64,000 nucleotides of DNA, from contig CAJWLU010000012.1 in the NCBI GenBank assembly GCA_913043225.1, positions 32,001 to 96,000 of the forward strand, in the 5' to 3' direction. This DNA comes from an uncultured Acidobacteriota bacterium. Its GTDB lineage: Bacteria > Acidobacteriota > Vicinamibacteria > Vicinamibacterales > UBA8438. Numbering within the stretch: position 1 is the first letter of the stretch; the number at the start of each line of letters is the position of its first letter. The position numbers were made by a program, and so were the translations under genes. Below, in pieces: positions 19,186 to 60,838 of the stretch. The notes under the pieces are model-generated. The model made no database searches. It was not told the DNA's origin and was given only the letters and a program-made list of their open reading frames with translations.

Positions 19186-19247
19186 TGTGAGGCACCGTTA
19201 GAGTGCGGCGCGTCTTGCAGAGTGCGCGCCCAGAAAGGTTCTTCAGC

Positions 19248-29408: not shown

Positions 29409-29542
29409 AATCCTTTAAGAGTGCTGATTGTGTCACACCGCCGAGGCTCGGCGTTCGGTTTCCAGAACGGTTGCGTCGGAGACTCGGCTGGGCCATTATG
29501 CGGGGGCATCGACGCGACCGATGGAGGCAGGGGAGAGCAGGG

Positions 29543-40994: not shown

Positions 40995-41303
40995 GATGAT
41001 TCTCACGATACCTCAGCATGCTTCCTGCGGCTCGACGGTGTCTTTGTCTCACCGTTTGTCGATAGCTCATGCCTAGACAGCACGCGGGTCAGGTGGTCAG
41101 TGCAGCAAAGTCCTGCAATAGAGAACATGTTTTCTCTTTGGGCGATGACTGGATCGACGGAATAATGGAGAAGGTGGTTAATTGGTTTGTCTGGAGTCCT
41201 GTCGCAACCAAGTCAGCGGTGCGGTAGGCACTGTCACGGAAAACTGATCAAGTTAGTGGCCGCAGCTCTTCGAGACGCGACGTAGCTATAAGGAGGAACA
41301 CAT

Positions 41304-41546: not shown

Positions 41547-41634
41547 TCTTGAAGGACCGAGCGCTTCTCCGCGTCGGCCGTCCTTACTTGGGCTGATACA
41601 CTCGCGGCGATCCGAGTTGTTCGGGTGGCCGCTT

Positions 41635-43665: not shown

Positions 43666-44864
43666 TGACAATCCGAATTGGCGTGGCGCTCGGCGCCCTG
43701 GTGTTCGCTTCGACGCCGATCCAGGCGCAGGTCGAAAAGCAGTTCATCAACCCGGCGGGCGGGTTCACCCAGGTGGTGACTGCCGAGGACCGGGGCGTGA
43801 CGACCATCTATGTTTCAGGCCAGGTGGGCAGCGGGTCGACCCTGCAGGAGCATGCCGAGTCGGCGTTCGCTGGCGTGGCGTCGCAGCTTGAGGCGGCCGG
43901 CGCGACCATGCGCGATGTCGTCAAGATTCGGATCTACGTTACCGATTTCCACCCGTCGGAGTACGGCGTAATCAGCGAGGCGCGGCTGGCTGCCTTTCCA
44001 GAGGACGCCTGGCCGGCTAGCACCATGATTGGCGTGAACGCGCTCGCCGCAGAGAACTTCAGGGTGGAGATCGAAGCCACAGCAGTGGTGGCCGAGCCGG
44101 ACGCTGACTTTGAGCTGGCCCGCATCGGTCCCTCCAGAGGTTTCAACCAGGCGGTCATCGTGCGCCACGGCGCGGTGAAGACGATCTGGATTGCCGGTCA
44201 GGTGGGGCAGGGCGATACCCTGACCGAGCAGACGCGCGTCGTGCTCGACCGAGTATCGCAGCGCCTCGAAGCCGCCGGCGCGACGATGGCCGACGTCGTC
44301 AAGTCGAACACCTACATCGTCGACTTCGATCCAGACACGCAGCTGCAAGCGTTCGCGGAGGGCCGGACGGGAGCCTATGGCGACAACCCGCCTTCGAGCA
44401 CATTGATCGGCATCGACCGGCTGGTGAACGACTCGATGCAGATCGAGGTGGACGCGGTTGCGGTGGTGGATGAGAGCGAGCACACCGAGCGCGTCACGAC
44501 GGAGCACCTCGACCCGGCTGGCTCTTTCACCCAGGTGGTAACGGTGCGCGGCGCCGGCGCCAAGACCATCTATGTATCCGGACAGGTGGGGCAGCCGGGT
44601 GATTCTCTGGAAGCCCAGGCAGTGCAGGCGTTCGCCGGCATGAAGGAACGGCTGGCGCTGGCCGGGGCGGCCCCAGAAGACCTGGTTAAGGTCCTCTACT
44701 ACATCCCTGGCTACACCCCTGGGAACGCCGGCATCGGTGCCGCGCGCGAGGCGAACGACTGGCCCACCGACAACCCGCCTGCCGCGACGTTGCTCGGTAT
44801 CCACTCGCTATTCTCGTCCACGGCGACATTCGAATACGAAGGCATCGCGGTTGTAGACCCTTAG
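43665..44864 (+). CDS. Secreted protein with three tandem Rid (YjgF/YER057c/UK114) domains
   Basis: Signal peptide ending IQA-Q; three repeats of TI(Y/W)(V/I)(S/A)GQVG...AGA...D(V/L)VK...P(A/S)(S/A)T(M/L)(I/L)G. Confidence 0.85.
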   Translation: MTIRIGVALGALVFASTPIQAQVEKQFINPAGGFTQVVTAEDRGVTTIYVSGQVGSGSTLQEHAESAFAGVASQLEAAGATMRDVVKIRIYVTDFHPSEYGVISEARLAAFPEDAWPASTMIGVNALAAENFRVEIEATAVVAEPDADFELARIGPSRGFNQAVIVRHGAVKTIWIAGQVGQGDTLTEQTRVVLDRVSQRLEAAGATMADVVKSNTYIVDFDPDTQLQAFAEGRTGAYGDNPPSSTLIGIDRLVNDSMQIEVDAVAVVDESEHTERVTTEHLDPAGSFTQVVTVRGAGAKTIYVSGQVGQPGDSLEAQAVQAFAGMKERLALAGAAPEDLVKVLYYIPGYTPGNAGIGAAREANDWPTDNPPAATLLGIHSLFSSTATFEYEGIAVVDP

Positions 44865-45231: not shown

Positions 45232-46230
45232 ATGAACGTCCTACGATTACTCGCGATGCGCTTGGCTGGAGGCTTGGCGCTTGTAACTCTCGTCGCCGTT
45301 TCGGCGCTTGGACAGTCGACGACCGACGTCCCACGGACCCCGTGGGGTGTCCCCGATCTCGGTGGCGTATGGGACTACCGAACGATCACGCCGCTTGAGC
45401 GTCCCGAGGAATACGGCGACCGCGCGTTTCTGACCGACGAGGAGGTTGCCGAGCTCGAGCGCGAGGCAGAAGATCGCGAACGCGTGGCCGACGAGGCGCC
45501 TGCCAGGCTGACCGAGGTGGCCGAGGAGGGCGCTAATTTGGTGTCGGTGGTCGGTTGTTGCAACCGCTTCTGGCTGGACTATGGCACGCAGGCGCAGGCC
45601 ACCGGACGCACCTCCCTCATCATCGATCCACCGAACGGCCGCCTGCCGGCGATGACTCCGGAGGCCGAGGCACGGCCTCCAAGGCGTAGCTCATTCGGTA
45701 CGCATGCCTTCAACTCGATGGAGGACTTCAGTCCGTCTGACCGTTGCACGGCGACGCTTGGCGTTCCGATCCGTCCGATTCCCTACAACAACAATATCCA
45801 GCTGTTCCAGACCGAAGAGCACTTGGTGATGTTTGTGGAGATGATGAAGACTATGCGGATCATCCCGATCAGCGAGCGGCCCCATAGCGCGGTGCGGCAA
45901 GATGCTGGTAGCTCCAGTGCCCACTGGGAAAACGATGTCCTGGTGGTGGAGACCACCAATTTTGCAGACGGACCGTCGGTTGGTGGCGCGAGCGCAGAGG
46001 CGACGTTGATCGAGCGCTTCCGGCGGGTCAGTTCCGAGATCCTCGAGTACGAATACACCGTTGATGACCCCGCCACCTGGACCGCGCCCTGGTCGGCGCT
46101 CCAGACCCTACGGAGCAACCCGCTGCCCATCTTCGAGTACGCCTGTCACGAGGGTAACTACGGGATGACGAATATGCTCCGTGGTGCTCGGCTCGAAGAG
46201 GCGAGGGCGGCGGAGCAAGACGCACGCTAG
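45232..46230 (+). CDS. Secreted EYACHEGN-family protein (copy 5)
   Basis: PRTPWGVPDLGGVWDYRTITPLERP, FEYACHEGN; SD GAGGAG; TATAAT at 45196-45201. Confidence 0.87.
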   Translation: MNVLRLLAMRLAGGLALVTLVAVSALGQSTTDVPRTPWGVPDLGGVWDYRTITPLERPEEYGDRAFLTDEEVAELEREAEDRERVADEAPARLTEVAEEGANLVSVVGCCNRFWLDYGTQAQATGRTSLIIDPPNGRLPAMTPEAEARPPRRSSFGTHAFNSMEDFSPSDRCTATLGVPIRPIPYNNNIQLFQTEEHLVMFVEMMKTMRIIPISERPHSAVRQDAGSSSAHWENDVLVVETTNFADGPSVGGASAEATLIERFRRVSSEILEYEYTVDDPATWTAPWSALQTLRSNPLPIFEYACHEGNYGMTNMLRGARLEEARAAEQDAR

Positions 46231-46348: not shown

Positions 46349-48460
46349 TTATTCCGGTAGTGCGAAGACGAACAGCGCGTTGCCGCCTTCCGGTTGATAG
46401 ACCTCGGGGTTTAGCGTGGCGGTCAGGCTGCGGAACACCCCGCCGAGGGCCGCCGGCACCGCGATGAATTGACGCCCGCCCGCTTCGTACGTGATCGGGT
46501 AGCCGTGGGCCGAGGCGGCGAGCCTGGTCTTCCAGAGGACCTCCCCTGTCTCGACGTCGAACGCCTGGTAGTAGCGCGCTCCGTCACCGGCGAACACCAG
46601 GCCGCCGCTGGTGGTCAGCGCTGAAGTAAGGAAGGGCGTGCGCTGCTCGTGGCTCCAGAGTTCTTCCATGGTGCGCACGTCGTAAGCGGCCAGCTTGCCG
46701 ACGTTGCCGTTGCTGCCCGGCATCTCCAGCAGCTCGTAGCGGCCGGCCGTGCCGCCGCCACCCTCCACGAACTCCACCTCGCGCCCCGTCAGGTACATAC
46801 AGGCCTGGTGCAGCGGGATCACCAGGGTGCCGGTGTCGGGGTCGTAGGCAGACGCCTGCCAGTTGTGCCCGCCGAGCAGACTTGGACAGGTGAACACCCG
46901 TTCGCCCACGGCGATGTCCTGCAGGTCGTCGCGGTAGGTAAGCTCGCCCGTCGTCCGGTCGATCGTCTGGAAGACGTCCTGGTAGACGGTCTCACGCAGC
47001 GCCAGGAATTCGCCGGTGCGTCGGTCGAGCTTCCAGAGAATGCCGTCCTTCCCGATGGTGAAGAGCCACTGTTCGCCGTCAGCGTCCACCAGCACTCGCT
47101 CGTAGACGATGTCGAGGTCGAGGGTCTCTCCCGGCGCATGCTGGAAATACCACCGCACCTGTCCGGTGGCGGGGTCAAGGGCGAGCGTCGAGTTGGTGTA
47201 GAGTGCGTCCTGCCGCGTGGTCATGCCCCGGCTGGCCGCTACCCACGGCTTGGCTTGGGCCGTGCCGATGTAGAAGAGCCCCAGGTCGGCATCGAAGCTG
47301 CCAGGAATCCAGGCGTCGCCCCCGGCGCGCAGATAGGGCGGGGTGTCGCCCCACGACGCGTCGTTTGGGTCGCCCGGGAGCGCCACGGTGGAAGTGCGCC
47401 ACAGCTCGGCGCCGGTGTCGGCATCATGCCCGGTGATGAAGCAGGTCTGCTCGGTGAACCGTTCGCAGCCGTTGGTTCCGGTGATGACCACGCCGTTGGC
47501 CACCACCGGTCCGGCGTTCTGTCTGAACCCGGCGGCATAGTCGGTTTTGACCGTGCGCCACACTTCTGCGCCGGTTTTGGCATCGAGCGCCACCACGGCC
47601 GCATCGGCGGTGGCGAGAAACAGCTTGTCGTCGTAGAGCGCGAGGGTGCGGGACAGTCCGCCCCGTACGTCGTCCGGCAACGGCGCCCGATAAACCCAGA
47701 TGACGTCGCCGGTGGCTGCGTTGATCGCCTGCACAACGTTTCCCGGGTTGGCCAGGAACATCACCCCGTCGTGGACCAGCGGCGTGGTCTGGTGATTGCC
47801 GGAGCGGACTGAGATGGACCAAGCCAGCTGCAGGTCGCCGACGTTTTCGCGTGTGATCTCGTCGAGCGGACTGTAGCCGTGCGCGTTGCGCGTTCGACGC
47901 CAGCTCAGCCAGTCTTCCGGTGGAGGATCGGCCAGCAGCGCGTCGGTCACCGGCGTTAGCTCGAACGGTACTTCCTGGTTCACGAACCGGGTCGACCGAC
48001 GGAACACCCGCTCACCCGCCCTTTCGGCGCTTCGCGCCTCGGCGATGTCGGCCGCGTCGCCGATGGTCACGCCGGCGTCCACGGTGAGGGTCGTCTCGCC
48101 CGGTGCCGCGCCGTTCGATTCCAGCAGATACGCCACCAGATCGATGTAGGCCTGGTCGCTGAGCGTGCCGGCCTGGCCAGGCGGCATCTCGTCCTTCAAA
48201 TACCTCAAGAGCTCGTCGGTCGTTTGCCCCGCCCAGCCGTCGAGAAAGTCGACGCCAGAGAGCGCGGGTGCGTGGACCAGTCCCTCGAGTCTGACCCCGT
48301 GGCATTCCTCGCACTGGAGGCCGTAGACTGACCACCCGTTGCCGGCCTGTTCGGCGGTGAAGGCACCGTCGGCCTGAGGCTGCTGCGCGGCGACGGTTGT
48401 GCCCGCAAGCGTGACGCTGGTCGCCACGGTCATGATGCGAAGGAACGAGCGGTGCGACAT
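46349..48460 (-). CDS. PQQ-dependent dehydrogenase with N-terminal cytochrome c domain
   Basis: CEECH and distal MPPG; WLSWRRT..HGYSPL, LDLD, GKDG, GGHNW; SD GGAGG. Confidence 0.9.
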
Positions 48461-48836
48461 GACGTCTACCTCCGGGAGCGAACGGGGGCCGAGGTGGTAT
48501 GTGGTGCGTGTGGTCCTTATACCACCACTTGGCAGACCCTGTGTCCGGCGCACCAGGTGTGGCGCACGCAGTGCTCTTGAAGGGCCCGTTTAGGAGGTTG
48601 TCCAGGTCACCGGGAAGGCGAGCAGTGCTTCGCGATTGATTGGCGGGAGTCCCTGCAGCCTGGTCTGCCCCAGCGGGGTATTTGATGGTCAACTAGTGAC
48701 ATTCTGGTCTCCGCAAGCTTGCCGTTGCTGGCTCGACGGGGCAGGGGACTCGGTGACAGCCGCCGTGCACGGGGTGACAGTGCTGCCGGTCGTGTGCTCC
48801 GCATATGATCAGCAGCAGTCTCGAAGGAGACATGAC

Positions 48837-50789
48837 ATGTGCACAACTCGGTTTGCCTGCGGGACCGTTCTATTCCTGGTACTGGTGGTGGCGTTTGCCA
48901 CTCTCAGCACCCAAGGCGCCCAGGCGCAGGTGCCTGACCGCGAATGGCACGCCATCGGTCGAGACGGCGCCAATTCAAAGTACTCGCCCCTCCACCAGAT
49001 CACGGCTGACAACTTTACCGAACTAGAGATTGCGTGGACGTGGGACTCGATCTCGCGCGCCGTAACCGCCGAACGGGAAGAATTACGTCCGTCCCCGTTG
49101 ATGGCTACGCCGCTGATGGCCAACGGCCTCGTGTATCTCACCAGCGAGTTCGGGCAGGCCGTGGCCCTTGACGCCCGAACCGGCGAACTCGTGTGGTCGT
49201 ATGATGCCCGCGCGTACGACCTAGTGGACCGTCCCATCAACATGGGTTGGCGGCACCGCGGGCTGACCTACTGGCAGGACGATGCAAGCGACGACGCCCG
49301 CGTCTTCCTAGCCAACCACGACCTGCGGTTGGTGGCGCTCGACGCGCGCACTGGTGCCGTCTATCCCGACTTCGGTGAGAACGGTCTCGTTGATCTCACA
49401 CAGGGCCTCGGACGCGACGTGGACGCCGCCAGGATGACCTACTCGTTCCCCGTGGCGATAGCCGGTGACACCATCATCGTTGGCAGCATTATGCAGGACG
49501 GCGCCATCCAGGTGCTGGAGGCACCGCCCGGACACGTGCGCGCCTATGATGCGCGGACCGGCGACTTGAAGTGGGTGTTCCGTACCGTCCCGCAGGGCGA
49601 CGATTTCGGCGTCGATAGTTGGGGCAACGAGTCGTGGCGCTATAGCGGTCACAGCAACGTCTGGTCCTACATGGCGGTGGATGAAGAACTGGGTTACGTC
49701 TATCTGCCCACTGGCACCCCGTCGAACGACTGGTACGGCGGCATGCGGCCCGGCGACAACCTGTTTGCCGAGAGTGTCATCGCGGTGGACGTCGAGACCG
49801 GCCAGCGCGTGTGGCACTTCCAGGCGATTCATCACGGCATCTGGGACTGGGATTTTCCGACCGGGCCCAACCTACTGGACGTGACCGTGGACGGTCGGCC
49901 CATGAAGATCTTGGCCCAGGTGAGCAAGCAGGCGTTCACCTATGTGTTCGACCGGGTCACCGGCGAGCCGGTGTGGCCGATCGAAGAGCGACCCGTGCCG
50001 GTGGGCGATGTGGAGGGGGAGTGGTATTCGCCGACCCAGCCATTCCCAACTAAACCGGCGCCGTTCGATCGGCAGGGAATCGCGCTCGATGACATCATCG
50101 ACTTCACCTCGGAGATTCGGGCCGAGACGCTCGAGATCATCGATGGTCGAGCACGCCTCGGGCCGTTGTTTTCCACGCCAGTGGTGCGGGGCTCTGGCTT
50201 ACCCTTCATTCAGGTGCCTGGGCCGGGTGGGGGCGCCAACTGGCAGGGGGCGGCTGTCGATCCCCAGACCGGACGACTCTTTGTGTCGTCATCCACCATG
50301 GGATTCCTGGCCGTTCTGGTCGAGCGAGACGTTGTCGGCTACTTCACCGACCCCTGGCCGGTGCGCCTGACTGGGCCCCAGGGGTTGCCGCTCTTCAAGC
50401 CGCCCTACAAGCGGGTGACCGCCATCGACCTAAACACCGGCGACCACGCCTGGCAGGTGCCGCACGGTGACGGACCCAGAAATCATCCCCGCCTGGCCCA
50501 CCTAAACCTCGGTCCCCTCGGTGGCGGTGGCGGCATCAGCTCCGGTCCGTTGGTCACGCCGACCCTGCTCATCATGAACCACGGCGGCCGAGACTACGGT
50601 GACATCAACTCCGGCCTGCGCACTGTCAGCGCCTACGATAAGGCCACGGGCGTGCACCTCGGATCGGTCGACCTGCCGGTGATGCCGGCAGGTAACCCCG
50701 TCACCTACGAGTACGAAGGAAGGCAGTATCTGGTGATTGCGGGTGGGACCGGCGACGACGCGCAGTTGATGGCGCTGACCCTACCCTAG
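48837..50789 (+). CDS. PQQ-dependent dehydrogenase (glucose dehydrogenase-like)
   Basis: KYSPLHQI, HHGIWDWD, GGANWQG, KPPYKRVTAIDL; SD AAGGAG. Confidence 0.9.
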   Translation: MCTTRFACGTVLFLVLVVAFATLSTQGAQAQVPDREWHAIGRDGANSKYSPLHQITADNFTELEIAWTWDSISRAVTAEREELRPSPLMATPLMANGLVYLTSEFGQAVALDARTGELVWSYDARAYDLVDRPINMGWRHRGLTYWQDDASDDARVFLANHDLRLVALDARTGAVYPDFGENGLVDLTQGLGRDVDAARMTYSFPVAIAGDTIIVGSIMQDGAIQVLEAPPGHVRAYDARTGDLKWVFRTVPQGDDFGVDSWGNESWRYSGHSNVWSYMAVDEELGYVYLPTGTPSNDWYGGMRPGDNLFAESVIAVDVETGQRVWHFQAIHHGIWDWDFPTGPNLLDVTVDGRPMKILAQVSKQAFTYVFDRVTGEPVWPIEERPVPVGDVEGEWYSPTQPFPTKPAPFDRQGIALDDIIDFTSEIRAETLEIIDGRARLGPLFSTPVVRGSGLPFIQVPGPGGGANWQGAAVDPQTGRLFVSSSTMGFLAVLVERDVVGYFTDPWPVRLTGPQGLPLFKPPYKRVTAIDLNTGDHAWQVPHGDGPRNHPRLAHLNLGPLGGGGGISSGPLVTPTLLIMNHGGRDYGDINSGLRTVSAYDKATGVHLGSVDLPVMPAGNPVTYEYEGRQYLVIAGGTGDDAQLMALTLP

Positions 50790-50836
50790 CTGGTCCGGGC
50801 GTCTCGGTTGGCCCTCTAACTGCCGCCCACTCCCGT

Positions 50837-50930
50837 TTGCTCCGCTCCATGAGTCGCCGTGGGAACTGTCTCGACAACGCCGAGATCGAGAGCGGGTTCT
50901 CCACGGTGAGGCAGGAACTCGGCACCAGAC
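50837..50930 (+). mobile_element. IS3-family transposase remnant
   Basis: SMSRRGNCLDNAEIESGFSTVRQE matches the IS3 integrase-core motif SxxGNxxDNAxxESF. Confidence 0.75.
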
Positions 50931-51027
50931 GCCATGTCTTTCACGGGATTGTGGATGTAGGTCAGCACGTTCAACATGCCGACGCTGGTTCGGTACGGAG
51001 CATGAACCAAGACCACCCGCTCGCTGG

Positions 51028-51933
51028 CTACTGAACCTGCAGGCGCCGGAACAGCTCCTGCACCTCCCCGGTCGAGCTTGCGCCGTTCAGGTCGAACGAC
51101 CAGTAGCACTCTTCCTTCAGCTGGCTCATCCTGAGCTGCATCACGCCCTGTGACTTGTGTTCGGCGATGACCCAGTTGCCGATAATCTCGAAGTTCAGCC
51201 GGTCGTTGAAACCGAGCGTCTGGGTGCGGTCGAAGCGGGCTACCGGTCCGCCTGACGCCGTGGTGAGCGGATAGCCGTCGAGACCGCTGAATTCGAACGC
51301 CTGGTCGCCTAGCGCGCAGGCGAATCCACCCAGCACCACTGGCCGGCCTGACGCCGGCAGCTGTTCCGCTGCCTGCAGCGCCAGTATGGTTGCCCCCTTG
51401 TGGTGGCCGTGGGTCTCGGTGAACGGGACGGCGCTGATGATCAGGTCGTAGCCGCCATCTCGGAGGATGCCAGCCAGCCGCTGTCGAACCCAGTCAGCGT
51501 CCCAGATGTCGGCCAGCACTGGTGCCACATCGGTGGTGAACGCGTTGTCCAACTGGTCGAAGAAAAAGTACTTGCTGATGCCTACGATGTCCCCGCCAGC
51601 CATTAGTTCCCGCTTTCTGATCGCCGGCAGATGTTGGCGTGCGACCTCCTCGTTGGTCAGTTCGACGCCGTAGATCTCCTCGGCGAACGTTGAGTAGCGG
51701 TAGCCGCCGCTTCCGTCGGTCACCAGTGCCAGGTCGACCGTGCCGTCGAGTTGGTGCGTTAGCTGGTAGAGCACGCCGCTGAATGCCGCGTCGTCATCGG
51801 GATGGGCGATGACCACCAGGGTCTTAGGACTGTCCGGTATCCGTCCTTGAGCCGAGGCCTCGGTGGGAAACAGCGATCCCGCGAGTTGGGCGATGGCGAG
51901 GACTGAGACGGTGTGGCGGACGCACAGCGGCAT
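51028..51933 (-). CDS. Secreted PIG-L/LmbE family deacetylase
   Basis: IAHPDD, TDGSGG, IRKRE, HGHH, HKSQ. Confidence 0.85.
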   Translation of the reverse strand: MPLCVRHTVSVLAIAQLAGSLFPTEASAQGRIPDSPKTLVVIAHPDDDAAFSGVLYQLTHQLDGTVDLALVTDGSGGYRYSTFAEEIYGVELTNEEVARQHLPAIRKRELMAGGDIVGISKYFFFDQLDNAFTTDVAPVLADIWDADWVRQRLAGILRDGGYDLIISAVPFTETHGHHKGATILALQAAEQLPASGRPVVLGGFACALGDQAFEFSGLDGYPLTTASGGPVARFDRTQTLGFNDRLNFEIIGNWVIAEHKSQGVMQLRMSQLKEECYWSFDLNGASSTGEVQELFRRLQVQ

Positions 51934-52001
51934 GCGTGCAGTCTGTCACCCACGGTGGTGGAACGTCGAGGGGGAACAGCGGTGGCCTCGAGGTCACGCA
52001 G

Positions 52002-52946
52002 CTAGCGTCCGGCCCGCTCCTCGGCACGTGCTCCGCCCAGCATACTGGTCATGGCGTAGTTGTTCCCCTCGTGGCAGGCGTACTCATACATCGCGTAGTT
52101 GTCGTTCCGGGATAGCCCAATTCCGACCTTCCAGGACGTTACCCAGGTCTCTGGATCGCTGATGGTCGCCTCGTAGTCAAGCGTGTTCTGATCGGTCAGC
52201 GTAAACATCTCGACCACCTTTAGGTGCTCTGTGTGCGCGTGGCCCCGGATGGCGCTCTTGTTGGTGAAGTTGGCCGTTTCTACCAAAAGGGTGTTTCCGT
52301 CGAAGTAACCGCGTGATCGTCCCATCCATTGGCTGATGTCGGACGACGAGAGTGGTCCGTCAGTCAGCGGGATCACGCGAACGTCGTGAATCATCTCGTA
52401 GCGCAGGATGACGTAACCAGGAATTTGCAGAATTTGATAGGCGTTGTTGTAGAGCGACGGGAACGTTGACGCTGGGATACCGCGCGTGATGCAGCGGACC
52501 CACGGATCCAGGTAGGTGTAGTTATCGAACCCCCGTCGACAGATCTCATCAATTCGGTCGCTGCCCGCGTCGGTGAGGGCGGGGACCCGCCCGTTCTCCG
52601 GGTCAGAAATCAGGCTCGGCCGCACGTTACCGACATCGAGAGAGGTCTCGAACCAATGCTCCGGCGGTCCGATGCCCGCGCCACCTTCGAGTTTCGGAAT
52701 CGGCTCGTCTGATGGGAAGCACGTGCCGGTACCGATAAGCAGCCGTGACGCCCGTTCGCCTGGCGGGGGAGGGGTTTCCAGGCTAAACCCCTCGCCGAGG
52801 TCGAAATTGGTCCAGATACCGCGCAAGTCGGGGTCGCCCCACGGGGTGGTTGATTGAGCGCTTGCAGCCCCGGCCAGGAAAATGAGCGCAAGAAAACAGC
52901 CCACTGTTGGTCGGAATGACGCCATAGGAGTGTTTATTCGTCGCAT
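52002..52946 (-). CDS. Secreted EYACHEGN-family protein (copy 6)
   Basis: TPWGDPDLRGIW, VRCITRG, YNNAYQI, MYEYACHEGN. Confidence 0.87.
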   Translation of the reverse strand: MRRINTPMASFRPTVGCFLALIFLAGAASAQSTTPWGDPDLRGIWTNFDLGEGFSLETPPPPGERASRLLIGTGTCFPSDEPIPKLEGGAGIGPPEHWFETSLDVGNVRPSLISDPENGRVPALTDAGSDRIDEICRRGFDNYTYLDPWVRCITRGIPASTFPSLYNNAYQILQIPGYVILRYEMIHDVRVIPLTDGPLSSSDISQWMGRSRGYFDGNTLLVETANFTNKSAIRGHAHTEHLKVVEMFTLTDQNTLDYEATISDPETWVTSWKVGIGLSRNDNYAMYEYACHEGNNYAMTSMLGGARAEERAGR

Positions 52947-53042
52947 GATCCGCTGCTCCCTCATTATCTAGCCGAGTTCGGCCTAGTTGATACCGTCGTC
53001 CCTAGGAACCTGCCTAATCTATTCGGACCAGCGATTACTAGA

Positions 53043-53172
53043 GAACGGCGCTGAACGTGTGAGATAGGCCGAGACGGTGAAGAAATAGAGCATTCTAGAC
53101 CGAGGAGTAATGCAGGTCACACGTGATTTAGCGCCGTTCGAATGCAGCGGGATTTTCACCGCGGTCTGCTAG
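53043..53172. repeat. Inverted-repeat element, possible MITE remnant ending in CTAG
   Basis: GAACGGCGCT..CGTGTGA (53043-53062) pairs with TCACACG..AGCGCCGTTC (53117-53139); followed by GGGATTTTCACCGCGGTCTGCTAG. Confidence 0.55.
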
Positions 53173-54047
53173 GGCGTGACGGTGACTTTCAGGTAGCCGT
53201 TCGTCCAGCAGCACTGGTTGCCGGACGAGCTGTCGACCCGGCCGAAGTTGTCGCCGCGTACCCGGAGGACATACTGGCCAGGCTGGTCGAAGGTTGCTTC
53301 GGTGGTGCCCATTCCCTGGGTGTCCTCAAGCGACACTGAGTATTCGCTGAAGATGACGTCGCCAGGACCGGTGTGCTTGAACCAGCTCAGCCGCATCGCC
53401 GTGGCGTTGCTCCGTCGTCTGACCGGGAGCAGTTCTTCGTCGCGCACGCTGTCATCGTTGAGCCAGACCGAGAGCGGCAGTGGCGTGCCCACTGAGGCTG
53501 TCATCGGCTCGCCCTCCACCCCTGAGGGGCCCCGGCCGGTCGGGCCGTCGGCGCTGAAGCTGAGCAGCGGCGGTTGTGACCCCATGGCCATCGGCCAGCG
53601 CAGCTGGTAGGCGCCGGTCTGTGCGCTGCCGGGCACGCTGAAAGTCTGTTCCTGGTTGACCAGGGTCCAGACCACCTCGCCACTGAATCCTGGGGGGATC
53701 GTCACGGTAAACACGCCGCGCTCCCGACCCCGACGTCTACGTGGACGGTCGCTACCATGTCCGGCCGGTGGGAACGAGGTCGGTTGGCCGCCGTCGAACT
53801 CGGCCGGCTCGATGAAGTTTGCAGCGCCGTGGGGAATTTCTACGACTTCGTTCAGGTTCAAATTGGAGTAGCCGAACGAAAGGGTCACCGTACCGTCGTC
53901 GTTCCGATACCAACCGTCGAAGAACGGGGCCACTCGCAATCCGTTGGGTGGTAGGGGAGTCAGCGGTCGCTGCCGTTGGGCTCCTAACGGGAGAGCGCTG
54001 ATCAGCAGCACGGTTGCGACGCCGCCCACAAGCCATCGTCTAGGCAC
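53169..54047 (-). CDS. Secreted hypothetical protein with Ig/PKD-like C-terminal domain and vicinal Cys
   Basis: GGAGG before GTG; PFFDGWYRNDDGTVTLSFGY; ATFDQPGQYVLRV; NQCCWTNG. Confidence 0.8.
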   Translation of the reverse strand: MPRRWLVGGVATVLLISALPLGAQRQRPLTPLPPNGLRVAPFFDGWYRNDDGTVTLSFGYSNLNLNEVVEIPHGAANFIEPAEFDGGQPTSFPPAGHGSDRPRRRRGRERGVFTVTIPPGFSGEVVWTLVNQEQTFSVPGSAQTGAYQLRWPMAMGSQPPLLSFSADGPTGRGPSGVEGEPMTASVGTPLPLSVWLNDDSVRDEELLPVRRRSNATAMRLSWFKHTGPGDVIFSEYSVSLEDTQGMGTTEATFDQPGQYVLRVRGDNFGRVDSSSGNQCCWTNGYLKVTVTP

Positions 54048-54142
54048 TGGCGTTTCCTCCATCAAGACGCGTCCGAAACGCGAAAGAGCCCCTCGATATC
54101 GAGAGGCTCCCTCGCGCCGGCAATCCGTCAAAGCTTGTCCGG

Positions 54143-55462
54143 CTACGGCTGTTCGGTGGTCTCCAATGCGAGTCGTTCCTCCCGCTCGGCCACCAGTTGC
54201 TCGTACCCCTTGTCGTCGAGGTGCGTGACGGCGATCCAGGCGTGCGACATCTCATCCGCCGTGCGACTGCCACGTCCCACCCACTGAGTCGGATCGGGGT
54301 TCTGTTTGTTCCCGGCCGTGTTGTCGTAGTAGCCGGTGATTACCAGGACGGATCCTGCCGGCACCAGCGGTGCCGAGTCGTCGGCGTAGATGTGGCTGGT
54401 GTGCCAGTCGTTCGTCCAATCAGAGACCGAGCTGACCATCTCCAGATCACCCGTCTTCGGGTCAAAGATCTCAAGCGTCTTACCCACTAGGCGGAAGTGA
54501 CCGTGCGGCTGGAAGCTGTCGATCCGCACCGGGGTGTCGAAGGAATGGAAGCCCTGGGTCATCGCCGTGCCGTGCGGCTGGAGCTCGAGCTCGCTACCCT
54601 TCATCAGGAGGGAATAGAGTTTGAGGTCCTGCTGGTATTTGCCCTCGTGGTCTTCCGGATAGAGCCACACTCCCATCTCGATGACGTCGTCCTCGATGAC
54701 CTCACCGGTGGGGTAGTAGTGGACGTCCCAGGTGACCATCGAGTCGGCCGGGAGCCGTCGGCACGCGTCCTCGGGAACAACCTCGCCCACTTTGCCCAGC
54801 GCGTATTCTGAGAGCCGCTCTACCTCGACCCACTCCTCGGTCTCTTCATCGAACCCGAGTAGCCGGCTGTTCGCGTGGTGCGCGGCGGCGCGGCCCTGAG
54901 GCGACGGCTTGACGGAGACCGCCTTGATACAGCGATCTTCGGTCATGCCGGTTGGCGTGATTGGGCGCCACCAAACGTCCTGGCCATCGGCCGCTAGGGT
55001 ATACGGCTTGGTCTTGATGATCAGATCGGGCGGACCGAACTGTTCCGCGTAGGCCCACTCGCTGAGGTCTGGGAACGACAGCGGCGGCGGGAGGTCGGCC
55101 GGGTCGCCCATCGGTGCGCCAGCGTCCACCCAACTGGAGATCGCCTCGATCTCGGACAGGCTTAGCCGGAGGTCGTCCTTTAGATTCTGAATGCCGATGT
55201 CGCGGTCGTAGCGATAGGGCGGCATCTCGCCCGTCACCACCCGGTTCTTGATGGACCGGGCCCAGGGCCGCACTTCCTGGTAGGTGGTCAGCGACATCGG
55301 GCCGATCGAGCCGGGTCGGTGGCACTGCTGACAGTTCTTCTGGAAGATCGGCGCAATGTCTTTGGAGAACGTTACCTCGTGCGCATCGCTGGGCGTCTGA
55401 GCGGCCGCGGGCGCACTAAAGGCAAGAAGGACTGCGATTCCTAGACTCGAGGCAACACGCAT
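54143..55462 (-). CDS. Cytochrome c / copper type II (PHM-like) monooxygenase fusion, secreted
   Basis: TFSKDIAPIFQKNCQQCH, MPP; AHHA, DVHY, PHGH, DEM. Confidence 0.82.
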   Translation of the reverse strand: MRVASSLGIAVLLAFSAPAAAQTPSDAHEVTFSKDIAPIFQKNCQQCHRPGSIGPMSLTTYQEVRPWARSIKNRVVTGEMPPYRYDRDIGIQNLKDDLRLSLSEIEAISSWVDAGAPMGDPADLPPPLSFPDLSEWAYAEQFGPPDLIIKTKPYTLAADGQDVWWRPITPTGMTEDRCIKAVSVKPSPQGRAAAHHANSRLLGFDEETEEWVEVERLSEYALGKVGEVVPEDACRRLPADSMVTWDVHYYPTGEVIEDDVIEMGVWLYPEDHEGKYQQDLKLYSLLMKGSELELQPHGTAMTQGFHSFDTPVRIDSFQPHGHFRLVGKTLEIFDPKTGDLEMVSSVSDWTNDWHTSHIYADDSAPLVPAGSVLVITGYYDNTAGNKQNPDPTQWVGRGSRTADEMSHAWIAVTHLDDKGYEQLVAEREERLALETTEQP

Positions 55463-55533
55463 ACTGACACCTCTCGAAAGCACTCTGGTTGCGACTACGC
55501 GCATCCTACTACAGAAACACGCCGGAGAGCCGC

Positions 55534-56544
55534 CTATGGTTGGCAGGACGAAGCCACCGTCGTCACCGACGTCAGGTTCAAGCGGCTGACCGGTTCGGCC
55601 GGGATGAGCAACGCCTTCACGAGTACCGTCTGGTTCCGCAGTGATGGCAGGTTGAACTCCGACGCGCCGATCAGCTGGAACTGACCCTGGCCACCGGTCG
55701 GGCCCTCGTGTGGCTGGTCTGTGGGAGGGCCGTTGGCGATGCTGGCCACCGGGTCGGTGGCGCCGGTCAACATCCAAGCGCCGGGCCCGGTTTCGACGAC
55801 GCAGCCGGTTACCGAGACGACCTGGACGTTTGACGGGGAACTTCGCGGTCGGTCCGACGACGTGGTTGGCGGTGGCGCGGGCGGCCGTGGCTCCGATGTA
55901 CCTCCGCTTCGCGGAGCATCCTTCTTCCACCAGGGATTGCCGTAGTTGAGGAACGGGCCGCTGTCCTCGGAGATGGTGGTCTGGACCCGGTAGTTGAAGG
56001 GCGAGAGCAGCCGGACGGTGCTTCTGACGCGGATCGTCTTGCGGTTATGGACGAACGGTGCACCGTCGAACCTGATGGTGAACACGCCGCCTAGGTCGCC
56101 AGTGACTGTCCCGGTCTGAAGATACGAGTAGCCGCGGCTGTCGTTCACCATCCGTGCGATGGTGAGGTTGTCTCTCAGGTAGCCGATGGTCTCTCGAATG
56201 GTGACCGGCCCGTCGTCTCCCATCGCCTCGGTGATTGCCTCGAAATAGCCATCATCAAGGGCCTTGAACTCGGTGGTGCCGTCCAGGCTGCCGGCTGGGC
56301 CAAGCGCGCTGTCAGGATAATCCCAGGAAAACGCCCACCTGCCGCTGAAGTAGCGTGCGAAATCGAGTTGAGGCACATCGTCATCCGGCCTGGTCGGCCG
56401 GTCGAGGTTCGGCATCTGGCTGGTCGGCCGATCAGAGGTCGGAGGCGCTTGTTCTGGGACCTGACCTTGAATGACAGCGTCCGAGCACGCGATCGCAACA
56501 AGGGTGAGGCCACAGCCCGCCGACTGTCGCCACCTGCTTCGCAT
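55534..56544 (-). CDS. Secreted two-domain hypothetical protein, possible lipoprotein
   Basis: LVAIAC; beta-rich N-terminal domain, Pro linker, C-terminal VTGCV...ASSC domain. Confidence 0.75.
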   Translation of the reverse strand: MRSRWRQSAGCGLTLVAIACSDAVIQGQVPEQAPPTSDRPTSQMPNLDRPTRPDDDVPQLDFARYFSGRWAFSWDYPDSALGPAGSLDGTTEFKALDDGYFEAITEAMGDDGPVTIRETIGYLRDNLTIARMVNDSRGYSYLQTGTVTGDLGGVFTIRFDGAPFVHNRKTIRVRSTVRLLSPFNYRVQTTISEDSGPFLNYGNPWWKKDAPRSGGTSEPRPPAPPPTTSSDRPRSSPSNVQVVSVTGCVVETGPGAWMLTGATDPVASIANGPPTDQPHEGPTGGQGQFQLIGASEFNLPSLRNQTVLVKALLIPAEPVSRLNLTSVTTVASSCQP

Positions 56545-56555
56545 GATCCGTAGCG

Positions 56556-57974
56556 CTACTGGTCCTGCGACGTTGTTGCAGGCACCTTGGTGAGATCCTG
56601 GCTATCCACCGAGAACTGGATGGTCGGTTGATACATCTCGTCCCAGCTTTGCTCCGACCAGTAGACCGGCTTCTCAGGCGCGGGGTTCCAGCGGTTGCCG
56701 GGCGAGTTGTCGTAGATGGCCACGTTGGTGATCTTGCTGCCGGCGGGCACCTTCAGCGGCATTTCCAGTTCGTACTGAATCTGCCAATTGAAGTCGTATT
56801 CCGGTACATCGAGGATCACTTCCTCGCTTCCGTCTGGATAGGTTACCCACCACTTCATGCTCTTGCCGCGCAGGTGCATGTGCGGTGTTAGCGAGTAGAC
56901 CGTGATCGGCTCGTTGACGGGCGTGATCCCCATCACCCGATGTGCCTCTTCGTAGGGCGGAATCAATGGCCTCGCGGGACTGCGCCGACTGTTGACGGCG
57001 TAGCGCAGTTCCTGGCCTGACGAGAAGTACAGCCCCCGGCCGCCGCTCTTCGGCACCGGGGAACCGGCCTGCAGATTCAGCACCTCGTGTGTCACTGGGT
57101 TCTTGGCGAACCACAAGCCGAGCCGGCTGCGGTCTGTTTCGACCTGGCCGGTCGGGTTGTAGTGCAACACCCAGCGGATGTACTTCCCGGCCGGAATCCG
57201 CTTGGCGAATCCGTCGGGGTGTGATTCGTAGCCGCGACCAGGCACGTAAGACAGCAGTTTGTTCGCGCCCGCTAGCGGGTCGTCGTTCCCTGAACTGGCA
57301 GCCCGGCCCATGGGCTGGCTCGGAGGTACCTGGCTGCCGTCCTCGTCGTGCAGATACCCGTCAGTCACGGAGTAGCCCTCCGGAATGTCGACAATGTAGG
57401 CGCCCGAGTGATGCACCACCGCATGGTTCTCGGGACGTAGTTCCAGGCCGGAGGCCCACCGGTCTTGGGCGAAGGGAATCGGCTGATAGAAGTAGAGGTA
57501 GGGTTCGGCGCCGTCCGGCTTGATCGTCCATTCGACGGGCTGCTCGAAGATGTAGTCCGGTTCACCTAGCTGCCAGCCGGTGGTGAAGGTTGGCGGCTCC
57601 GGCAGGTCGGCATCATTACCTGGCGGTGCGCCGCCTTCGACCCACGCCACGATGGTGTCGATCTCGTCCTGTATGAGTCGGTTGTCGTTCCGCATCTTCA
57701 TGCTGGTTGGAGTCGCGCCCCACGGCGGCATCTCGCCCGAGACAACCCGGGCCTGGATCGACCGTGCCCATGGACGCGTGCTCTTGTAGTCCAAGAACGA
57801 CATCGGACCAATTTCTCCCTGGCGATGGCATCTGACGCACTTCTGGTACAGGATGGGTGCGACGTCCTTGGCAAACGTCGGCGCGGCGCCGGGCGCTTCG
57901 TTGGCATGTGCGCCTCCAGCCGCCGGTGCTGTCAGAGTAACCGCTACCGCTAGTATTGAGAGAGGACGCTGCAT
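56556..57974 (-). CDS. Cytochrome c / copper type II (PHM-like) monooxygenase fusion, secreted
   Basis: TFAKDVAPILYQKCVRCH, MPPW; VVHH, VLHY, PHMH, YDFNWQ, DEM; SD AAGGAG. Confidence 0.85.
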   Translation of the reverse strand: MQRPLSILAVAVTLTAPAAGGAHANEAPGAAPTFAKDVAPILYQKCVRCHRQGEIGPMSFLDYKSTRPWARSIQARVVSGEMPPWGATPTSMKMRNDNRLIQDEIDTIVAWVEGGAPPGNDADLPEPPTFTTGWQLGEPDYIFEQPVEWTIKPDGAEPYLYFYQPIPFAQDRWASGLELRPENHAVVHHSGAYIVDIPEGYSVTDGYLHDEDGSQVPPSQPMGRAASSGNDDPLAGANKLLSYVPGRGYESHPDGFAKRIPAGKYIRWVLHYNPTGQVETDRSRLGLWFAKNPVTHEVLNLQAGSPVPKSGGRGLYFSSGQELRYAVNSRRSPARPLIPPYEEAHRVMGITPVNEPITVYSLTPHMHLRGKSMKWWVTYPDGSEEVILDVPEYDFNWQIQYELEMPLKVPAGSKITNVAIYDNSPGNRWNPAPEKPVYWSEQSWDEMYQPTIQFSVDSQDLTKVPATTSQDQ

Positions 57975-58138
57975 TCCTATCTCCTTCAAGGGTTATATTT
58001 GCTATTAGACTCGCCTTGAGGCGCTGGGGCAACTTCTGTCTTATCGTACCTTTTCGAGAAGCGCTGAAAACCCAAGTACAGATTGCCGAAGCTGAACGCC
58101 TGCTCGTGGAGAAGACGAGGCGTACCCGCTATTCCGCC

Positions 58139-58244
58139 ATGAGATACACGCAACTCTTTCTCTCTGCTCTCCTCGTGTGCTCCTGTGCGCCTGGGCCCCA
58201 GAGCACGGATTGGTCCACCTATCTGGGCGATCCAGGGATGACCT
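58139..58244 (+). pseudogene. 5' fragment of a lipoprotein PQQ-dehydrogenase-like gene
   Basis: MRYTQLFLSALLVCSCAPGPQSTDWSTYLGDPG, then similarity ends. Confidence 0.5.
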
Positions 58245-58249
58245 GGCCG

Positions 58250-58798
58250 CCGGTGGTGGTGACCAGTTCGGCCCTGCCTCAAAGAGCGGGAAAGTATTGC
58301 TCGACAACGTGAATTGTTCATTGTCGTAGGTCACCGCTTGCAAGCCCAAGAGGTCACTTCCCGTCACCATTAGCAGGGTGATGTACCCGCACAGGGCGGT
58401 TGCTAGCACCTGTAGCCCCAGGCATGCCTTGTCGATCGACCCTTGGGTCAGTGCACCGGCCTGCGCAACGCGAAATCCGGAGAAGGTCAGGACGCCAACA
58501 AATACAGCGCCCAACGTCGTCAGCAGGTTGGCTTCCAGGCCACGAGCGATTCGTCCGATAGTTCCCAGCGGAACGGCGAGCATGAAGTTGCTCAGCAGTG
58601 CGATCACGACAATGAGGCCGATACGCTTGTGTAGAGCAGTGCCCTTGGTTTTGGCAAGTACGAAACCGCCGCCGACGAGTGTGATCAGTCCCAGGGCGAT
58701 GTGGACCTGGACGAGGAGCCCCAACAGACCGGCGTAGCCAAGTTCCTGCTGGTACGAGACGTCGATGATTTTCTCGATAAGCTCCGCGGCTTGAGCAG
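58250..58798 (-). pseudogene. DUF2306-like membrane protein fragment truncated at both ends
   Basis: HIALGLITLVGGGFVLAKTKGTALHKRIG plus TM helices; frame open back to the tRNA 3' end with no ATG/GTG. Confidence 0.55.
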
Positions 58799-58886
58799 TG
58801 GTGCGGAAGGGGGGACTTGAACCCCCATGGGACTAAGTCCCACTGGCTCCTGAAGCCAGCGCGTCTGCCAATTCCGCCACTTCCGC
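58799..58886 (-). tRNA. tRNA-Leu (anticodon CAG)
   Basis: Acceptor GCGGAAG/CTTCCGC, anticodon arm CTGGC-TTCAGGA-GCCAG, long variable arm, GGTTCAAGTCC, encoded CCA. Confidence 0.97.
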
Positions 58887-58938
58887 AGTGGGGGAGTGCA
58901 ACCCCTGGCGGGGCCTTCGGCCGGTCAGCCGAAGGCTC

Positions 58939-58975
58939 AGTATACCGGAGTCCGAGACGGCGGTGCACGTATACT
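58939..58975. promoter_or_regulatory. Divergent -10 boxes for tRNA-Leu and sppA
   Basis: TATACT on minus strand at 58939-58944 and on plus strand at 58970-58975. Confidence 0.45.
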
Positions 58976-59086
58976 CAAATGGGAATGGGCCGTGCTGTTT
59001 TGGTCCGAGGGAATCGAGACCGGTGCGCCGAGCGTGCCGTGGCGCCGGGCGACCGCCGGTAGCCGGAACGAGTAGAAGGAGATACC

Positions 59087-60838
59087 GTGGCAATGCACCG
59101 CGGCGTGAAGTTCATCTTCGTGTTCCTGCTTCTAGCGGTCATGGCCTCCATGGGCGGCATGGTGGCGATGTACTTCTTCGTCTCTGGCAGCGCGCCCTCG
59201 GTCAGCACTAACTCGGTGCTGGTACTCCCGGTGCCGGGCGGCCTCAGCGAGCGCGAGGGTAACCCGCTCCTGACCGCTTTTGCCGGTCCGGGGGCGACGC
59301 TGGCCAGCGTGGTGGAGAGCCTGCGCAAGGCCAAGGTCGACCAGCGTATTCGCGGCGTTATTCTGGCGCCGGCGGGGCCGCAGGTTTACTGGGGCAAGGC
59401 GCAGGAGATTCGCGATGCCATCGTTGACTATCGCGAATCTGGCAAGCCCATCGTGGCGTTCCTCGAGTACGGCAGCACGCAGGAGTACTACGTGGCCTCT
59501 GCGGCCAACAAGGTGTTCCTGAAGCCGGGGAGTCCGCTCGATCTGGTGGGCGTGGCCAGCTACGAGATGTTTCTGCGGGGGCTGTTCGACAACATCGACG
59601 CCTACCCTGACATGCTCAATGCCGGTGATTTTAAGACGGCGGCCAACCAGTACACCGAGACCACGATGACGCCTGAGCATCGTGAGATGGCGGAATCGCT
59701 AAACAACGATCTCTACGAACAATTGGTCGAGGGGATCGCCGATGGGCGCAAGCTGGACGAGGACGAGGTTCGGCGCCTGATCGATGAAGGGCCGTTTCTG
59801 CCGAAAGATGCACTGCAAGCCGGCTTGATCGATGGCCTGGTCTACGCCGACGAACTGAAGCGGCAGCCGCCGTTCGACGAAGTCAACTGGCGGGAGATCC
59901 ACGACAGCGAGTATCGCCAGCTGAGCCTGGAGTCGGTCGGACTGAACCGTGGCCGGCGCATCGCGCTCGTCTATGCGAACGGCACCATCAACAGCGGCGC
60001 CGGCGGCATCGATCTGCTCGGCGGCGAGGTGCTCGGATCTGACAGTGTGATTCGCTCGATTCGTGCCGCTCGCGATGACGATTCGGTGCGCGCCATCGTA
60101 CTGCGCATCGACAGCCCTGGAGGCTCAGCTGTCGCCTCGGACGCCATCTGGCGCGAGGTGGGTCTGGCGGCTCAGGAGAAGCCGGTCATCGCCTCGATGT
60201 CCGACCTCGCCGCCTCGGGTGGCTACTACATTGCAATGGCGGCCGATGCCATCGTGGCGCAGCCGGGCACGTTGACCGGGTCCATCGGCGTGGTGGCCGG
60301 GAAGATTGCCACCGGTGGGACCTACAACAAGCTCGGCATTACGGTGGAGCCGGTCGCGGCCGGTCGCTTCGCCGGCATCTACTCACCCGTGGCGCCGTTC
60401 ACCGACGACGAGCGGTTGAAGATGCAGGATCACATCGACGCCATTTACGATGATTTCATCACCAAGGCCGCCGAAGGGCGAGACACCACGCCAGACGCTA
60501 TCCACGAGGTGGGGCAGGGCCGCGTATGGACCGGGCGCCAGGCCAAGACACACGGGCTGGTGGACGAACTGGGCGGTATAGGGCGGGCGGTAGCCCTGGC
60601 GAAGGACCAGGTGGGGCTCGACCCCGACGAGGATGTCGAACTCGTGGTCTTCCCTCGTCCCCAGAGCCTGTTCGAACTGTTGAACAACGGCTTCTCGGTG
60701 TCTGGCGCCCTGGCCCGTTTGGGCTGGTTGCCGCCCTCGGCCGAGATGGTGGCCGTAGCGGCTACCCAGCCGCTGCATATGTTCCGCCCGGGCGAGCCGC
60801 TGGCTATCCTGCCTGGGGCGTTGGTGCCTGGCCAGTAG
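59087..60838 (+). CDS. sppA: Signal peptide peptidase SppA (long form)
   Basis: YYVASAA, GDFKTA, LRIDSPGGS, AASGGYY, TGSIGV, GRVWTG. Confidence 0.95.
   Translation: MAMHRGVKFIFVFLLLAVMASMGGMVAMYFFVSGSAPSVSTNSVLVLPVPGGLSEREGNPLLTAFAGPGATLASVVESLRKAKVDQRIRGVILAPAGPQVYWGKAQEIRDAIVDYRESGKPIVAFLEYGSTQEYYVASAANKVFLKPGSPLDLVGVASYEMFLRGLFDNIDAYPDMLNAGDFKTAANQYTETTMTPEHREMAESLNNDLYEQLVEGIADGRKLDEDEVRRLIDEGPFLPKDALQAGLIDGLVYADELKRQPPFDEVNWREIHDSEYRQLSLESVGLNRGRRIALVYANGTINSGAGGIDLLGGEVLGSDSVIRSIRAARDDDSVRAIVLRIDSPGGSAVASDAIWREVGLAAQEKPVIASMSDLAASGGYYIAMAADAIVAQPGTLTGSIGVVAGKIATGGTYNKLGITVEPVAAGRFAGIYSPVAPFTDDERLKMQDHIDAIYDDFITKAAEGRDTTPDAIHEVGQGRVWTGRQAKTHGLVDELGGIGRAVALAKDQVGLDPDEDVELVVFPRPQSLFELLNNGFSVSGALARLGWLPPSAEMVAVAATQPLHMFRPGEPLAILPGALVPGQ

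Follow-up and report, generated by a model that had tools for sequence, protein, structure and literature searches.

Cytochrome c-fused PHM/DBH-like proteins and their separate partner modules in an uncultured acidobacterium

A 64,000-nucleotide stretch of an acidobacterial genome (C12:32001-96000, hereafter the window) was analysed around five minus-strand open reading frames (ORFs) within 52002..57974, named g5, g4, g3, g2 and g1 in reading order (Table 1). Two of these, g3 and g5, encode a c-type cytochrome domain fused to a core that places them, by fold and ligands, in the superfamily of peptidylglycine alpha-hydroxylating monooxygenase (PHM) and dopamine beta-monooxygenase (DBH), although they are neither PHM proper nor DBH proper. 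Judged by gene neighbourhoods across relatives, g3 and g2 form one dedicated module (module A), g5 and g4 another (module B), and g1 belongs to neither. On balance we favour the reading that both enzymes are haem-fed periplasmic binuclear copper monooxygenases, hydroxylating small non-peptide substrates with clade-specific partners. The host genome (G000) is 3.85 Mb long, 64% GC and 96% complete. Its named close relatives are Acidobacteriota, mostly Vicinamibacterales, and the RNA runs that contain the stretch carry a marine label, from which the host is likely a marine acidobacterium.

An earlier sequence-only reading had placed five co-oriented genes here and quoted haem and copper motifs for the two fusions; the genes lie where it put them, and every motif is present. 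In g3 the haem residues are CQQCH at 44-48 (C44, C47, H48) and M80, and the copper motifs AHHA (194), DVHY (H248), PHGH (319) and DEM (403) provide H195, H196 and H248 for the CuH site and H320, H322 and M405 for CuM. The corresponding residues of g5 are CVRCH at 46-50 (C46, C49, H50) and M82, with VVHH (H188-H189), VLHY (H271), PHMH (364) and DEM (445) providing H188, H189 and H271 for CuH and H365, H367 and M447 for CuM. The invariant Met of an EMPP motif, missing from the earlier motif list, is found in both proteins and is likely the second haem ligand. The two proteins share 30% identity over the length of g5, which carries two insertions of ~30 and ~22 residues typical of its clade. The export signals proposed for all five proteins were judged from hydropathy only, the most hydrophobic stretch of each protein being its N-terminus; the N-terminal peak is clear in g1, g2, g3 and g5 and marginal in g4.

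The search against Cu2_monooxygen and Cu2_monoox_C suggested with that reading returned little. Cu2_monoox_C (PF03712) matched g5 weakly (E 0.0012, 18.8 bits, with a gathering cut-off of 23) and did not match g3, so that neither protein reached the cut-off. Among 101 family members PF03712 matched 18 at E 0.001 and PF01082 none, and 0/4 Pfam copper-monooxygenase matches in the own genome were above cut-off. The haem domains matched Cytochrome_CBB3 below cut-off (E 1e-4 to 4e-4), and an NCBIfam search gave no name for any of the five genes. Neither g5 nor g3 as a single sequence gave a meaningful PDB match, and profiles were needed. With a profile of 101 relatives the best solved relatives were human DBH (E 5.6e-8) and rat PHM (E 3e-7), and five His (HH, H, HxH) stood in register with the PHM/DBH copper ligands; a core-only profile (n=75) put DEM in register with the PHM Met, in a low-score ungapped second stretch. 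Given these profile matches, the motifs are no mere coincidence. The ligands of PHM are His107/108/172 at CuH and His242/244/Met314 at CuM (PMC12164859).

The AlphaFold2 model of mature g3 (predicted local distance difference test, pLDDT, 93.9; predicted template modelling score, pTM, 0.90) is predicted to have the PHM fold with its two jelly-roll sub-domains. It superposes on PHM 1sdw with Z 18.8 (root-mean-square deviation, rmsd, 3.4 over 247 residues, 13% identity) and on DBH 4zel with Z 15.9, the next unrelated fold scoring Z 7.7, and Foldseek agrees, with DBH 4ZEL as best match (E 3.5e-12). The fold of g5 is assigned by homology only. The fold match would imply that the copper ligands cluster into two sites ~11 A apart. 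The N-terminal ~90 residues of the model are helical and match monohaem PccH 4rlr (Z 7.2, rmsd 2.5 over 78); with CxxCH near the N-terminus and a distal Met, g3 shows the features of a class I c-type cytochrome. The proposals that both fusions hold the CuH and CuM ligand sets, and that a predicted structure would superpose on PHM, are thus borne out by six ligands in register and by the g3 model, and the haem-domain match to PccH makes it plausible that the fused haem serves as electron entry in place of ascorbate.

The family is large, with 12,838 clusters at 50% identity for E up to 0.001, many of them fragments, and 6,649 such clusters for E up to 1e-10, fragments included; its named carriers include Acidobacteriota, Planctomycetota and Verrucomicrobiota. 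Conservation was read from 191 non-redundant relatives, picked by profile score and length and not by motif (the profile covered the haem domain), because the invariance in another alignment (A2) was partly built in, 46 of its rows being motif-picked. All six copper ligands are kept in 188/191 relatives, CxxCH in 189/191 and the haem Met in 190/191, and pocket residues differ between clades. The own genome holds 19 fusions, 13 copies of g2, two each of the g4 barrel and the g4 small domain, and ~89 of g1. One of its fusions (C4:50869-52368) keeps the haem motif and has lost all copper ligands. The same state is seen in L138:9201-10496 and L157:9358-10716, and two of these three paralogues end tandem arrays. 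Our literature search, which left most subscription journals outside, found no study of the bacterial family.

The tie between g3 and g2 is close. All 13 copies of g2 in the own genome stand beside a PHM-like gene, and such a gene lies within 1.5 kb of g2 in 28/30 loci of relatives, one of the misses being at a contig end. In metagenomes the count is 67/80 loci, all 13 misses having <700 bases upstream, and in a phylum sample (201 genomes, 23 with a g2 match) 28/30 loci, the two misses being weak partial matches; the relative, metagenome and phylum locus sets partly overlap. The model of g2 has two beta-sandwich domains (pLDDT 88), and its fold matches are generic Ig-like and PKD-like ones (best Z 10.1 and 8.6), mostly on the C-terminal domain. 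Fold matching, with its matches mostly confined to that domain, found no catalytic fold, and a profile search of solved structures returned only a designed protein and weak PKD-type matches.

Structure prediction suggests that g3 and g2 form a heterodimer in which g2 touches the two copper sub-domains as well as the loop preceding the CuM Met. The complex scored 0.73 and the best of three controls 0.00, against a mark reached by 116/157 solved complexes and 2/215 mismatched pairs, which is a rough guide for alignments of our own; at least 69% of contacts agree between runs and the partner pLDDT is at least 82. The predicted interface on g3 includes both copper sub-domains and is centred on loop 368-382, directly before CuM Met384, while on g2 the contacts are F19, F20, V115, P116 and Y124 (all mature numbering). 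Within it, Trp373 of g3 (W394 in full-length numbering) is predicted to lie on Phe19-Phe20 of g2. This Trp is found in 75/76 g2-linked enzymes versus 1/115 others, and the g2-linked enzymes are a single clade (support 1.0). Moreover, three short partners that have only the contacting N-terminal domain still adjoin Trp-type enzymes, in line with the predicted contacts. No solved complex resembling g3-g2 was found, because g2 lacks a convincing solved homologue. The A-clade signature residues of g3 are W394, R400, H354 and H407; across the clade, His occupies the position of PHM Asn316 in 66/76 enzymes and that of Gln272 (aligned through DBH) in 59/76. In L231 (721-1875) and 13 metagenome loci related to it, 14 in all and from one sub-clade, g2 is directly followed by a third gene, which matches no Pfam family and nothing in the own genome.

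The g5-g4 pairing appears strong but looser than that of module A. A PHM-like gene lies within 1.5 kb in 22/25 g4 loci, own locus counted, and 32/34 g4-linked enzymes fall in one clade, which also contains nine unlinked ones. The fused form of g4 was seen only in this genus and in G007 among the loci examined. DUF1579 (PF07617) is matched by 24/54 relatives of the g4 N-terminal domain (best E 4.5e-8) and g4 itself scores 16.8 bits against a cut-off of 25.2 (E 0.0066). No conserved metal-binding His or Cys was seen in this domain, and no paper on the function of DUF1579 was found in the literature. The Cys pair of the C-terminal domain is likely a disulphide. For this domain there was no Pfam match, a weak lead to DUF5818/DUF4431, and a cluster look-up that gave unnamed clusters only; its second gene in the own genome stands in divergent orientation to another fusion. 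In G001 (L068:4297-5448) and in L187 (1530-2681) the g5 orthologue is immediately preceded by a PHM-like gene that lacks the haem domain but has the HH, H and HxH motifs; no such gene stands at the corresponding place in the window.

Table 1. Genes, domains and putative signals of the g5-g1 region, in window coordinates
Feature	Position	Strand	Description
g5, module B enzyme	56556-57974	minus	472 aa; signal-like N-terminus, class I cytochrome c domain, PHM/DBH-like core
g4, module B partner	55534-56544	minus	336 aa; start 11 bases past g5 stop; fusion of two genes that are separate neighbours in most relatives
g4 N-terminal domain	55909-56415	minus	DUF1579-like, putative beta-barrel fold
g4 C-terminal domain	55537-55836	minus	~100 aa, two invariant Cys
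g3, module A enzyme	54143-55462	minus	439 aa; signal-like N-terminus, cytochrome c domain, PHM/DBH-like core
Hairpin in g3-g2 gap	54079-54116	minus	perfect 17-bp stem; gap z -3.96
g2, module A partner	53169-54062	minus	297 aa; two Ig/PKD-like beta-sandwich domains; likelier start GTG 54047, preceded by GGAGG
Sigma-70-like consensus match	53092-53120	minus	weak; in gap ahead of g1
g1, bystander	52002-52964	minus	320 aa; secreted family

As to the source of electrons, the own genome has ~79 genes like those of pyrroloquinoline quinone (PQQ) dehydrogenases, one PqqD-like match and three cytochrome c assembly genes (PF01578). The sequence-only reading had the haem possibly fed by the PQQ dehydrogenases nearby, and no special link of this kind was seen. 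A PQQ gene lies within 4 kb of a PHM-like gene in 2/19 cases, versus 13% of random positions, and within 10 kb in 10/19, versus 25% of random positions and 52-61% for g1 genes, NHL genes and g1-rich regions. A locus-level link is rejected, PQQ genes being no closer than in comparable gene-rich regions. As the fusions have PQQ genes no nearer to them than other secreted-protein genes do, these would at most feed a shared pool. Across 16 genomes of other families, those with more PHM-like genes tend to have more PQQ genes (Spearman 0.68, the counts being lower bounds and the kin not independent), and this joint expansion shows a shared lifestyle rather than coupling. A precedent for the cytochrome itself is CjX183 of Cellvibrio japonicus Cbp2D, a c-type cytochrome that drives a bacterial copper monooxygenase (PMC8981238). 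The PQQ-dehydrogenase-like genes of the window are at 19203-21212, 23715-25832, 37213-38988, 41617-43665, 46349-48553 and 48636-50789, one of them fused to cytochrome c.

The sequence-only reading had joined all five genes into one machine with both paralogues acting together. The genes share a strand, short gaps (11, 71 and 80 bases along g5-g4-g3-g2) and an order also found in G001, L186 and L187, and tandem PHM-like genes occur in other Acidobacteriota. However, the full order is limited to this genome, the same-genus G001 and the metagenome loci L186 and L187, which are of the same two lineages, and G001 has ~590 and ~670 additional bases between the units. In the same-family genomes G003, G010, G011 and G019 the orthologues of the two modules are separated by ~1 to 1.8 Mb. 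Of 31 metagenome loci with at least 4.5 kb upstream, two have g4 near g2, and of 39 with at least 1.5 kb downstream, two have g1 after g2; in each case the two are L186 and L187. Co-occurrence in this genus only, on a point by which the earlier reading had let its proposal stand or fall, leaves a single five-gene machine unsupported; the five-gene framing is a local accident, and these positions show the two modules to be independent. Of the three uncharacterised genes proposed as partners, g2 and g4 stand as dedicated partners and g1, a family of many copies, as a bystander. We leave very little chance to a joint machine, already largely refuted. Peptide amidation, also raised in that reading, would take the form of a PAM-like pathway, with the C-terminal glycine of peptides or acylglycines hydroxylated and separate PAL-like propellers cleaving the product to amide and glyoxylate. 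PHM is the closest fold, and the search for PAL-like propellers recovered at least 24 NHL-repeat proteins in the own genome (L277-L296 among them), many of which conserve His and Arg at PAL-like motifs; with 19 of them combined in a profile, rat PAL 3fvz aligned as a single stretch (E 1.2e-51). In that search, though, other NHL proteins scored better and PAL came ninth, and a search with a single member failed to recover PAL at E 1e-8. The propellers are also unlinked to the fusions, with no NHL gene in the locus and no enrichment around the enzymes (one within 10 kb in 5/19 cases, versus 25-27% in comparable regions). The peptide carboxylate anchor of PHM is Arg240, Asn316 and Tyr318 (PMC12164859). 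At these positions g3 has Gln/His/Trp and g5 has Thr/Gln/Thr, and the full set is present in 0/191 relatives. The Gln of g3, two residues before the first CuM His, is the DBH state, though Arg stands there in 10/76 A-clade enzymes. Since the anchor is absent, amidation is unlikely, and we consider the whole pathway improbable.

Electrons might also flow in reverse, or O2 might not be inserted: the copper pair would then oxidise a substrate or handle nitrite, NO or peroxide, while the haem exchanges electrons with the respiratory chain as in a quinohaemoprotein dehydrogenase. A His/Met monohaem domain can work as acceptor as well as donor, structure entry titles record nitrite- and azide-bound PHM crystals, Gln170 of PHM is not kept in g3 or g5, and no reductase genetically tied to module A or B was found among the recurring neighbours. 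Against this, the His2-Met CuM, which is the O2 site of PHM (PMC12164859), and the His3 site are retained throughout nearly all of the family (188/191), the solved relatives PHM and DBH are monooxygenases, and clade-wise pocket variation is what different organic substrates would lead one to expect. Reverse flow is in our view unlikely. A non-catalytic role, in which the PHM scaffold would bind or traffic copper or sense redox state, draws on the 3/191 relatives, one in the own genome, that keep the haem motif without copper ligands; their loss indicates that the scaffold can serve without catalysis. Both sites are nevertheless intact in g3 and g5 as in the great majority of relatives, the 40 commonest neighbour clusters of the modules include no recurring family of copper transporters or regulators, and 19 diverged copies better fit substrate diversity, which makes such a role very unlikely for these two proteins.

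If g3 and g5 are haem-fed monooxygenases, as we favour, both chains would be exported and receive haem from the cytochrome c maturation system. A periplasmic cytochrome pool, kept reduced by the many PQQ-type dehydrogenases, would reduce the fused haem, and the haem would pass electrons to CuH, replacing ascorbate. O2 would bind CuM, and the enzyme would hydroxylate a small organic substrate at a C-H bond that is benzylic or adjacent to nitrogen, as DBH and PHM do. The partner may shape the pocket or control how the cleft opens and closes; the module B barrel might bind or present a hydrophobic ligand, the least supported step. The 19 paralogues with their differing pocket residues would amount to a broad catabolic toolkit and not a peptide-hormone pathway. 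The recurring neighbour clusters of the modules gave no substrate clue.

Several observations weigh against this scheme. Gln170, on the proposed electron path of PHM, is Asp in g3 and Val in g5. Ascorbate in PHM seems to do more than reduce copper (PMC12164859), an extra role that would be beyond a haem. The 96% complete genome yielded no PqqC or TenA-like gene, in a search whose first version matched no control genome either, and the PQQ enzymes may therefore be without cofactor. Since the g2-linked enzymes are one clade, the match of Trp and partner counts as one evolutionary event and not 75. Moreover, 6/19 fusions in the own genome have no adjoining g2 and 4/19 lack all three partner types, so the family as a whole does not depend on having a partner.

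A wider picture can be offered only tentatively, and may well prove wrong. It would make this large undescribed bacterial PHM/DBH branch one of multi-subunit, ascorbate-free enzymes, connected through their fused cytochrome c to the electron pool of the periplasm, whose clade partners (two Ig domains in clade A, a barrel and a small disulphide domain in clade B) clamp or gate the two-copper cleft and set the substrate class. In marine Vicinamibacterales-like cells, together with dozens of PQQ dehydrogenases and PAL-like lyases, they might form a periplasmic loop that feeds itself and opens up the inert C-H bonds in dissolved organic matter.

Of the intergenic regions, the g3-g2 gap holds a hairpin that is possibly a partial terminator or mRNA stabiliser; stems of at least 11 bp occur in 12/19 orthologous gaps, own gap counted. 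The g2-g1 gap measures 204 bases. The sigma-70-like match within it is the one observed in 50800-59100, where 1.4 are expected by chance. Contigs from RNA runs of close strains overlap parts of all five genes (8/14 listed runs examined), and such contigs cannot reveal transcription, strand, level or operon structure.

The g1 family, which shares two conserved Cys and, close to the C-terminus, a conserved Cys-His-Glu motif, has no Pfam match and only unnamed clusters in a cluster look-up; in the window its members lie at 29471-30562, 30659-31666, 31688-32743, 40099-41070, 45232-46230 and 52002-52964. Upstream of g5, 58041-58724 (minus) is a membrane-protein-like ORF without Pfam match, whose final ~90 residues are non-coding-like; it is the same in L186 and missing at the G001 locus. 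A PIG-L family deacetylase with a signal-like N-terminus (51028-51933, minus) lies 69 bases past g1 and is not conserved beside module A or B. Further off are a secreted-looking protein that carries two CxxCH motifs and matches no Pfam family (39054-40004, minus) and, after a signal-like stretch, three tandem RidA/YjgF (Ribonuc_L-PSP) domains (43473-44864, plus), unusual in that this family is normally cytoplasmic.

In the literature examined, accounts of PHM/DBH chemistry concern eukaryotic enzymes supplied with ascorbate, and it is an open question whether the copper pair keeps its 11 A separation or closes up during turnover (PMC12164859). A bacterial relative carrying its own coloured donor of single electrons, together with a partner that is predicted to bridge the two sub-domains, would allow direct measurement of electron delivery and domain closure. 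The family would also add thousands of unassigned oxygenases, at the 6,649-cluster count given above, to the metabolism of uncultured Acidobacteriota and Planctomycetota. What is added here is the two-module split, the second partner set (module B) and the predicted interface on the CuM loop.

Among known systems, the cytochrome-driven lytic polysaccharide monooxygenase (LPMO) of the CjX183 study (PMC8981238) is alike in that a small c-type cytochrome replaces ascorbate as reductant. It differs in having one copper in a His brace, another fold and its cytochrome on a separate protein, and no homology is claimed. The closest solved matches of the haem domain are PccH (4RLR) and the haem domain of hydrazine synthase alpha (5C2V), at profile E 0.0053 and 0.0012 respectively, a likeness limited to ~90 residues and modest at Z <8. 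For the g4 barrel the comparison is with DUF1579, through relatives of the domain, g4 itself falling below the cut-off. PHM, the catalytic core of PAM (1SDW, 1PHM, 1OPM), is like g3 in its two jelly-roll sub-domains and six-ligand register. Unlike PHM, g3 and g5 have a fused class I cytochrome c and dedicated partner proteins, lack Arg240/Asn316/Tyr318, Gln170 and a fused or linked PAL, and have few or no core Cys (two in g3, none in g5). DBH and TBH carry an N-terminal DOMON domain and C-terminal dimerisation domains. DBH (4ZEL), the best profile and Foldseek match, shares with the fusions an extra N-terminal domain before the core; here, however, that domain is a helical cytochrome c and not DOMON, the proteins end ~35 residues past the CuM Met without a C-terminal dimerisation domain, and g3 is instead predicted to form a heterodimer with an Ig-like partner.

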